From: Escherichia coli
GTDB taxonomy: Bacteria; Pseudomonadota; Gammaproteobacteria; Enterobacterales; Enterobacteriaceae
Reading direction: 5' to 3' (one strand)
Assembly (NCBI RefSeq): GCF_003334815.1
Contig: NZ_QOWO01000004.1
DNA length: 64,000 bases
The notes under the pieces are model-generated. The model saw only the letters and a list, made by a program, of their open reading frames with translations, ran no database searches and was not told where the DNA came from. A program made the translations under genes and the position numbers. Every line of letters begins with the position of its first letter. Within the stretch, counting starts at the first letter, position 1. Of the stretch, positions 53,985 to 54,580 are shown piece by piece.

Positions 53985-54580
53985 TGCCGTGAAGTGCGGC
54001 ACCCCGTAGGTCAGACAAGGCGGTCACGCCGCATCCGACATCCAACGCCCGAGCCGGTTGCCTGATGCGACGCTGGCGCGTCTTATCAGGCCTACACCGC
54101 TGTGAAGTGCTCCACCCCGTAGGTCGGATAAGGCGGTTACGCCGCATCCGACATCTAACGCCCAAGCCGGTTGCCTGATGCGACGCTGGCGCGTCTTATC
54201 AGGCCTACACCGCTGTGAAGTGCTCCACCCCGTAGGTTGGATAAGGCGGTTACGCCGCATCCGACATCCAACGTCCGAGCCGGTTGCCTGATGCGACGCT
54301 GGCGCGTCTTATCAGGCCTACACCGCTGTGAAGTGCTCCACCCCGTAGGTCGGATAAGGCGGTTACGCCGCATCCGACATCTAACGCCCAAGCCGGTTGC
54401 CTGATGCGACGCTGGCGCGTCTTATCAGGCCTACACCGCTGTGAAGTGCTCCACCCCGTAGGTTGGATAAGGCGGTTACGCCGCATCCAACATCTAACGC
54501 CCGAGCCGGTTGCCTGATGCGACGCTGGCGCGTCTTATCAGCATACGCCACATCCGGCATACCATGCCGGATGTGGCGCA
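53985..54580. repeat. Tandem BIME/REP array, about five units of 113 bp, ending in a perfect REP-like palindrome next to mqo
   Basis: TGTGAAGTGC recurs at 54101, 54214, 54327 and 54440 (period 113 bp) with a diverged copy at about 53988; units contain inverted REP pairs; terminal palindrome CGCCACATCCGGCAT-acc-ATGCCGGATGTGGCG at 54546-54578. Confidence 0.85.

Follow-up and report, generated by a model that had tools for sequence, protein, structure and literature searches.

The 601 bp that lie, stop codon to stop codon, between the convergent genes eco and mqo in the Escherichia coli DNA analyzed here (a 64-kb stretch, henceforth the window, to which all coordinates refer) are occupied by a tandem array of five 113-bp units of inverted REP sequences. 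The array is a BIME-2, and sequence comparison identifies it as a five-unit allele of the E. coli K-12 element REP161, which has six units. It is, in our judgment, very probable that this REP161 allele acts at three levels: on DNA, in RNA and in evolution.

The Repeat Units

The flanking genes, eco (ecotin; 53494..53982, + strand) and mqo (malate:quinone oxidoreductase; 54584..56230, - strand, stop codon at 54584-54586), come from the list of open reading frames and owe their names to RefSeq annotation, that of the 100%-identical record CP025903 and that of K-12. The first base of the array (53983..54546, assigned to neither strand) directly follows the eco stop codon. Tandem Repeats Finder places one array at 53989-54541 (period 113, 4.9 copies, 95% matches, 0% indels, score 1015) and no other long-period array within the 64-kb window, and a repeat search gives start-to-start spacings of 113, 113 and 113. 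Because base identity at a lag of 113 is 0.947 inside the array, as against 0.257 ± 0.033 at other lags across 53900-54600, the periodicity is far beyond chance. An earlier note on this DNA, made from its letters, had proposed about five head-to-tail units of 113 bp and had named self-alignment among its checks; both the period and the number of units are borne out.

Setting the register at the base after the eco stop yields exactly five units: 53983-54095 (unit 1), 54096-54208 (unit 2), 54209-54321 (unit 3), 54322-54434 (unit 4) and 54435-54546 (unit 5), the last shortened by a 1-nt deletion in its CTAC tail. Unit 2 is identical to unit 4 and unit 3 nearly identical to unit 5, so that the array follows the pattern A-B-C-B-C', which suggests that a double unit of 226 bp may have been duplicated; base identity at a lag of 226 is 0.953. 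The Replication Risk Sequences (222-bp GC-rich repeats) were considered for this 226-bp super-period and rejected: they lie near dusC/lysO and belong to a different sequence class. An alignment of the units that also includes one unit of REP325 has a mean column identity of 91%.

On the + strand each unit consists of a 23-nt spacer (ACCGCTGTGAAGTGCTCCACCCC), a 34-nt Y-type REP with a GTAG foot at its 5' end, a 20-nt linker and a 36-nt Z2-type REP ending in CTAC, the two REPs standing head-to-head. The Y REPs lie at 54006..54039 (unit 1), 54119-54152, 54232-54265, 54345-54378 and 54458-54491, and the Z2 REPs at 54060..54095 (unit 1), 54173-54208, 54286-54321, 54399-54434 and 54512-54546, as placed by pattern coordinates and by alignment to the Rfam naRNA4 model, to whose Y and Z2 stems both hairpins align. 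The inverted REP make-up proposed in the earlier note thus resolves into strictly alternating Y and Z2 elements. In both types the stem is interrupted by the two-base mismatch that E. coli REPs typically show. Apart from the last tail, no Z2 REP differs from the others across the five units, and the Y stems are largely intact. The Y stem of unit 1 is degenerate, with two uncompensated mismatches, and the Rfam score of that unit (63.7 bits) is the lowest among the four complete units. The last Z2 tail is degenerate as well (CATAC instead of GCCTAC; CAGCATAC instead of CAGGCCTAC). Its reading as a truncated fusion was ruled out: since the tail at that position is still an intact GGCCTAC in Escherichia sp. 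E1V33, the last E. coli Z2 is best described as a complete but decayed REP.

The head-to-head linker between Y and Z2 (ATCYAACGYCCRAGCCGGTT, 54040..54059 in unit 1) recurs in every unit, and the tail-to-tail linker (ACCGCTGTGAAGTGCTCCACCCC, 54096..54118 at its first occurrence) is found at every unit junction in the alignment. The latter has its homologue in unit 1, in the first 23 nt past the eco stop codon (ACTGCCGTGAAGTGCGGCACCCC). The unit boundary reads CTAC/ACYGCY, which makes the repeated segment the stretch from the base after the eco stop to the Z2 tail; a 47-nt query across the junction is specific for this locus.

The BIME-2 Class

BIME-2 elements are defined (PMC3333891) as Y and Z2 REPs in tandem copies with short variable linkers; BIME-1 elements are single-copy and combine Y with Z1 and a long L linker that carries an IHF site. 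The eco-mqo array has five Y REPs (GTAG...GGATAAGGCGGTTACGCCGCATCC...) alternating with five inverted Z2 REPs (GCCTGATGCGACGCTGGCGCGTCTTATCAGGCCTAC), in 4.9-5 tandem copies conserved within the locus (95% matches, no indels), with linkers of 20 and 23 nt that include neither an L linker nor an IHF site. It is extragenic, lying at the 3' ends of two transcription units, between the stop codons of eco and mqo, and its unit number varies between strains (1, 2, 3, 5, 6 and 7 units among the loci sampled below). Because inverted Y and Z2 REPs in tandem, with short linkers free of an IHF site, match the published definition, the array is a BIME-2. With BIME-1 and the RIB/RIP elements it shares an origin from inverted REPs in extragenic 3' regions; it differs from them in having Z2 rather than Z1, in being tandem rather than single-copy at its locus, and in having no IHF consensus in place of the long conserved IHF-site linker. 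That consensus (WATCAANNNNTTR) is absent from both strands of the eco-mqo gap, one mismatch allowed, and binding of IHF to the array was rejected on this ground.

The repeat also generates a ladder of five overlapping minus-strand open reading frames (53797-54165, 54024-54260, 54155-54391, 54250-54486 and 54381-54584), which the earlier note had correctly taken to be spurious. That these frames of 67-122 codons encode real small proteins has virtually no chance of being right. Some GenBank E. coli records do list one 78-codon frame from the array as a 'hypothetical protein', but the frames are unannotated in every RefSeq record examined, overlap one another in shifting phase because 113 is not a multiple of 3, and exist only through the sparsity of stop codons in a GC-rich repeat (62% GC). 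Their number changes with the number of units, and the deposited versions are confined to E. coli and mostly marked 'partial' at the ends of contigs, a sign that the array tends to interrupt draft assemblies. The ladder is an artefact.

Identity with REP161 and Gyrase Targeting of the K-12 Allele

In K-12 MG1655 the eco-mqo gap is 714 bp long and holds 5.9 copies of the 113-bp unit. Its array corresponds to that of the window with unit 1 present twice and with a single SNP, beside the palindrome that ends the gap (54579), and it is because of this correspondence that the window array can be identified as the five-unit allele of REP161. Locus, 113-bp unit, flanks and terminal palindrome are all the same; the difference is of six units against five, so that five rather than six Y-type gyrase sites are to be expected here. 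The name REP161 is attached to the eco:mqo row in a supplementary table of a 2026 preprint (bioRxiv 10.64898/2026.03.23.713779), and REP161a-i is named as an EcoCyc REP region in a mobilome study. The functional data drawn upon below were obtained with the six-unit K-12 allele or with REP325.

Sutormin et al. 2019 (Topo-Seq) list the K-12 array in their Table DS3 as 'BIMEs2', 654 bp, 'eco>-<mqo', and report 11 gyrase cleavage sites in it with ciprofloxacin (Cfx), 7 with Rif+Cfx, 2 with microcin B17 and 5 with oxolinic acid. They also find that gyrase cleaves Y REPs far more often than Z2 REPs, and that the gyrase signal at REPs rises under rifampicin, that is, when transcription is blocked. 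A remark in the table entry for this array reads 'Espeli, Boccard 1997: 6 cuts'. (Six is also the number of Y REPs in the K-12 array.) Since these sites are known for the K-12 allele, the window locus is an allele of a characterized gyrase-targeted BIME-2, and by analogy its five Y REPs presumably recruit gyrase in this strain. The earlier note had named gyrase and IHF together as potential ligands of the array; gyrase holds up, by virtue of the cleavage sites in the K-12 allele, and IHF does not, for want of a consensus site in the gap. At the DNA level, then, the Y REPs would serve as strong, transcription-independent sites of gyrase binding and cleavage, about one per unit, as has been shown in K-12, and the cluster would sit just where positive supercoils build up as eco and mqo are transcribed toward each other.

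The Terminal Palindrome and the Ends of the eco and mqo Transcripts

The array is capped by a palindrome (54543..54581, assigned to neither strand) with perfect 15-nt arms (54546-54560 and 54564-54578) around a 3-nt loop, ACC. The arms can be extended to 18 nt with one mismatch (54543-54560 and 54564-54581; 94% complementarity). The mqo stop codon lies 5 nt from the perfect arm, confirming a palindrome that had been noticed beside it, and 2 nt from the 18-nt arm. As RNA, the palindrome folds with -29.8 kcal/mol (z -7.2) on the + strand and -34.0 kcal/mol (z -5.0) on the - strand; no U-run follows it in either direction. Searched as a 55-nt query together with the mqo stop codon, the palindrome matches 3,175 of 5,426 complete E. 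coli genomes, once in each, and the notion that it is a dispersed repeat family was rejected on the basis of this single occurrence. In our own reading of the sequence, its right arm resembles the 5' half of a Y REP (GCCGGATGTGGCG compared with GCCGGATGCGGCG).

The combination of GC-rich hairpin and U-run that marks an intrinsic (Rho-independent) terminator does not occur in the gap: a consensus scan finds no such terminator there, and 53983-54583 contains no run of four or more T or A. A stringent scan also finds no internal promoter-like site in the array, an absence that constitutes weak evidence. Termination at this locus has been mapped in K-12. In supplementary Table 16 of the 2026 preprint, the bidirectional eco:mqo terminator (log phase; 18-bp stem, 3-nt loop, -33.4 kcal/mol) ends at 2305108, where the mqo coding sequence has its low end, and is listed as sharing only 9 nt with REP161. 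Transferred through the K-12 annotation and sequence, its 46-nt overlap region corresponds to 54539..54584 of the window. Among the supplement rows listed, REP161 appears in the table of bidirectional terminators and not in that of Rho-binding sites. From the column names and a related preprint, we infer that the terminator table derives from Ju et al. 2019, a SEnd-seq study. According to that study, as cited in 10.1101/2022.10.23.513370, hairpins of this kind pause converging polymerases, which are then released by collision. The palindrome resembles these overlapping bidirectional terminators in being a strong hairpin, free of a U-tract, that lies between convergent genes; the likeness is limited to the palindrome and excludes the 113-bp array.

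This distinction bears on the suggestion that the REP array itself is the bidirectional terminator and stabilizer for both eco and mqo (terminator or stabilizer, in the earlier note), for which the prospects are poor. REPs between convergent genes do often lie inside mapped bidirectional terminators, with expression of both genes elevated (bioRxiv 10.64898/2026.03.23.713779), and a single unit folds stably on either strand (-47.5 and -52.7 kcal/mol), but the mapped 46-nt overlap is, as that table has it, the palindrome with its 9 nt of REP161, and the palindrome is a single-copy sequence rather than a dispersed REP. A bidirectional terminator between eco and mqo there is, then, in K-12; it is the palindrome and not the array. 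With the terminator at the palindrome, mqo transcripts end just past it, before the array, and + strand transcripts that reach it have crossed the entire array. Because mqo transcripts stop short of the array and + strand transcripts traverse it, all of the array belongs to the eco side, where it makes up the 3' untranslated region of eco. The palindrome would accordingly be regarded as a pause and termination hairpin at which the transcripts of both strands end, as mapped in K-12.

The Array as RNA, and Comparison with REP325

The + strand 3' untranslated region folds into ten REP hairpins plus the palindrome, with -283 kcal/mol (z -6.1). Between the eco stop codon and the first REP lie 23 nt; translation-coupled effects of REPs have been reported within a range of 15 nt, and the distance at eco falls outside it.

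The closest characterized relative on the RNA side is REP325, a BIME-2 array of six units, repeating every 100 bp, in the yjdM 3' region, on which the Rfam family RF02564 (naRNA4) was defined. Like the eco-mqo array it is made of Y-linker-Z2 doublets in the same orientation to the upstream gene (yjdM or eco), with the GTAG-foot Y first, and it likewise lacks a U-tract; the Y and Z2 parts of the two units align well. It differs in its period (100 bp against 113), in a head-to-head linker that is 7 nt shorter (the eco-mqo linker is a 7-nt insertion relative to the naRNA4 model), in a tail-to-tail spacer unrelated to that of eco-mqo, and in its setting between two tandem genes of one operon (yjdM and yjdN), whereas eco and mqo converge on their array, with a separate palindrome as its cap. 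All five units of the window array exceed the RF02564 gathering score of 59.5 on the + strand, that is, in the sense of eco (76, 76, 74.2, 63.7 and 61.9 bits), and they do so on that strand only: the - strand yields four full-length unit matches of 37.6-41.6 bits and a fifth, partial one at 54511-54578 of 21.7 bits, all below threshold.

It could be argued from these scores that the units are five genes of the naRNA4 type, cut from eco read-through transcripts and acting with HU to bridge cruciform DNA and condense the nucleoid. Qian et al. 2015 reported naRNAs from each unit of REP325, proposed that with HU they condense the nucleoid, and suggested that homologous sequences elsewhere are able to fill the same role; the mobilome study, for its part, places REP161 among eight REP regions that are protected from exonuclease under stress. 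Against this, the 2026 preprint (bioRxiv 10.64898/2026.03.23.713779) disputes the nucleoid function of naRNAs for REP325 itself and reports that products other than full-length or discrete naRNAs predominate. The RF02564 match simply restates the presence of a Y-linker-Z2 doublet (with its linker 7 nt longer than the model), the stringent scan offers no promoter-like site in the array, and most E. coli genomes have a single unit. On balance we hold the naRNA4 interpretation to be very unlikely.

Instead, in the same preprint REP325 stabilizes yjdM mRNA and terminates transcription in a leaky fashion that depends in part on Rho. Where convergent genes have REPs between them, that work finds a correlation with higher expression of both; terminal REPs have no general effect on mRNA half-life, and variance from locus to locus is large. 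By analogy with REP325, the three-level reading of the array would have it form an eco 3' untranslated region of about 600 nt, a string of ten stable hairpins that would terminate transcription leakily, in part through Rho, and bar the way to 3' exonucleases. Such a string may protect eco mRNA and thin out the polymerases that travel on toward mqo.

Variation in Unit Number and the Age of the Array

A query made of the flanks only locates the eco-mqo gap in 5,422 of 5,426 complete E. coli genomes. In an evenly spaced sample of 60 of these, the majority have a gap of ~148 bp, corresponding to one unit; the others have gaps of 261-264 bp (two units), 367-375 bp (three), 587-601 bp (five), 714-716 bp (six) and 829 bp (seven). 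Eight alleles that were read fit a common frame of 6 nt, n-1 full units, and a terminal unit with the palindrome. The 47-nt junction query matches 2,007 of the 5,426 genomes, at 1-11 places per genome (median 5), and in the genomes checked the number of junctions is the number of units minus one (5 in MG1655-type strains, 4 in five-unit strains). It is because of this relation that about 37% of the genomes can be estimated to carry at least two units; some 63% lack a unit-unit junction, and those sampled have one unit. The largest array probably has 12 units, in a genome with 11 junction matches. The variation in copy number that the earlier note had expected is therefore found, from 1 to at least 7 units among the loci read and probably up to 12. 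Expanded alleles are concentrated in genomes whose flanks are at least 99% identical to those of the window, in K-12-like lineages. Change has occurred within the K-12 lineage itself: MG1655 has six units against five in DH5alpha, whose gap differs from that of the window only by the SNP at 54579, and the genome announcement for ER1821R mentions 'a small expansion of REP161'.

When one genome per bacterial species is scanned for the junction, it turns up in two places only, both between eco and mqo: an array of 6.5 units with 90% match in Escherichia albertii and one of 2.9 units in the cryptic-clade Escherichia sp. E1V33. Because both arrays sit at the same locus, the array is taken to be older than E. 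coli, predating the split between E. coli and E. albertii, and alleles with one unit have plausibly arisen by contraction. In two natural cases, E. coli ACN002 and the E. albertii type strain, the last Z2 is missing along with the left arm of the palindrome. As ~63% of genomes make do with one unit and these alleles have lost half of the palindrome, neither the unit number nor the palindrome is strictly required. Insertion of an IS into the array was also considered and rejected; the one case seen, in strain PM4, proved to be an IS10-type insertion inside eco and not in the array.

The sequence also has the features of a REPIN, a substrate of the REP-associated transposase TnpA-REP (RAYT): GTAG flanks the 5' side of Y on the + strand and that of Z2 on the - strand, an AA/GC mismatch interrupts both the Y and the Z2 stem, and the unit junction reads GGCC/TACA, the slash marking a cleavage site between C and T. 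This is a strong context for cleavage by TnpA-REP in vitro (PMC3333891). On these features, the possibility raised in the earlier note that the array could be a target of such transposases stands, and the junction is consistent with transposase-mediated amplification, yet gives no evidence for it.

The combination of mobility signals and instability invites a deflationary reading, namely that the array is a selfish or neutral REP doublet (REPIN), amplified by transposase or slippage and drifting with no selected function at this locus. Much is compatible with it. Unit number ranges from 1 to ~12 and has contracted to one in most lineages, it shifts within laboratory lineages, K-12 holds two copies of the degenerate unit 1 with its uncompensated stem mismatches, the junction offers the favored cleavage context, and the mobilome study predicts REP161 to be a RAYT-associated REPIN. 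Opposed to it are the retention of the array at this locus since before the E. coli/E. albertii split, the identity of the Z2 REPs (last tail aside) and the largely intact Y stems across all five units, and the action of gyrase on the K-12 array in vivo. We judge absence of selected function to be less likely than not; it is in any case compatible with, rather than exclusive of, a BIME-2 that acts on DNA and RNA as proposed. The evolutionary level of that proposal, which is in part shown, is that the array would grow and shrink in steps of one or two units, through slippage or unequal recombination and possibly also through a REP-associated transposase, to give the range of 1 to ~12.

Significance

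The element, its class, its cleavage by gyrase, its instability in copy number and the adjacent terminator have already been described for K-12. For annotation, the practical value is that the eco-mqo gap should be labeled as a BIME-2 (REP161 allele) and the minus-strand reading frames suppressed. The array is also a breakpoint for short-read assemblies, and its unit number is prone to mis-assembly.

A more consequential, if rather improbable, proposition is that unit number serves as a fast-mutating dial that sets the count of gyrase sites and the length and protection of the eco 3' untranslated region. If so, strains would differ heritably in the expression of ecotin or Mqo, or in local supercoiling, without any change of promoter or coding sequence, and the palindrome-loss alleles of ACN002 and E. 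albertii would uncouple the termination of eco and mqo. The population picture, with some 63% of genomes at one unit, expansion concentrated in K-12-like lineages, an E. albertii array built from the same unit, and naturally occurring palindrome deletions, may help tests of whether REP arrays tune the expression of neighboring genes.

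Unit number and integrity of the array

The repeat array between the convergent eco and mqo genes (53983-54546), an allele of K-12 REP161, varies in length even among close laboratory relatives. DH5alpha (locus L012, 990-1590) carries five 113-bp units in a 601-bp gap and differs from the window by one SNP, whereas MG1655 (L001, 1895-2608) has six units in a gap of 714 bp. K-12 laboratory strains thus differ among themselves in unit number; the 'small expansion of REP161' noted in a publication for strain ER1821R fits this difference. The array also leaves its mark on annotation and assembly: a 78-codon ORF arising from the repeat (54024-54260, - strand) appears as 'hypothetical protein' in some GenBank records of E. 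coli. Many members of the corresponding protein cluster are 'partial' and lie at contig ends, which indicates that the array often breaks short-read assemblies.

The eco side of the array

The spacer of unit 1, directly after the eco stop codon, reads GCGGCA where the other units have GCTCCA (53985-54001, + strand). It is this difference that allows a small 6-bp hairpin, predicted by RNA folding, to form right after the stop codon. In E. coli PM4, eco is interrupted by an IS10-type element with an ISVsa5-family transposase, inserted within the coding sequence (L013, 312-2138) and splitting it into two pseudogene fragments; the insertion leaves the PM4 repeat array intact.

The annotated start codon of eco (53473-53982, + strand) differs among RefSeq records: the CDS is 489 nt in those of K-12 and strain 300709, starting at the equivalent of position 53494, and 510 nt in those of UTI89 and ACN002, which use the in-frame upstream ATG at 53473. 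The small ORF upstream of eco (53186-53359, + strand) matches the annotated but uncharacterised gene yojO (54 aa in K-12), named merely 'hypothetical protein' in some RefSeq records.

Other features of the window

An Rfam scan of the whole window at the gathering threshold returned MicF RNA (62559-62652), one tRNA (36999-37072) and an L25 ribosomal-protein leader (33258-33283), each on the + strand; all are ordinary and expected in this region of the E. coli chromosome. Two short AT-rich tandem duplications are also present, of 21 bp x 1.9 (9108-9147) and 18 bp x 2.0 (10152-10187).

Natural loss of the terminal palindrome

The last Z2 REP is deleted, and with it the terminal palindrome's left arm, in two natural alleles, one in E. 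coli ACN002 (L009, 801-1449) and the other in E. albertii NBRC 107761 (L010, 10560-10620), and the strong hairpin beside the mqo stop codon is therefore gone from both. Such alleles offer a ready-made test of the palindrome's role: does termination of eco and mqo transcription require it?
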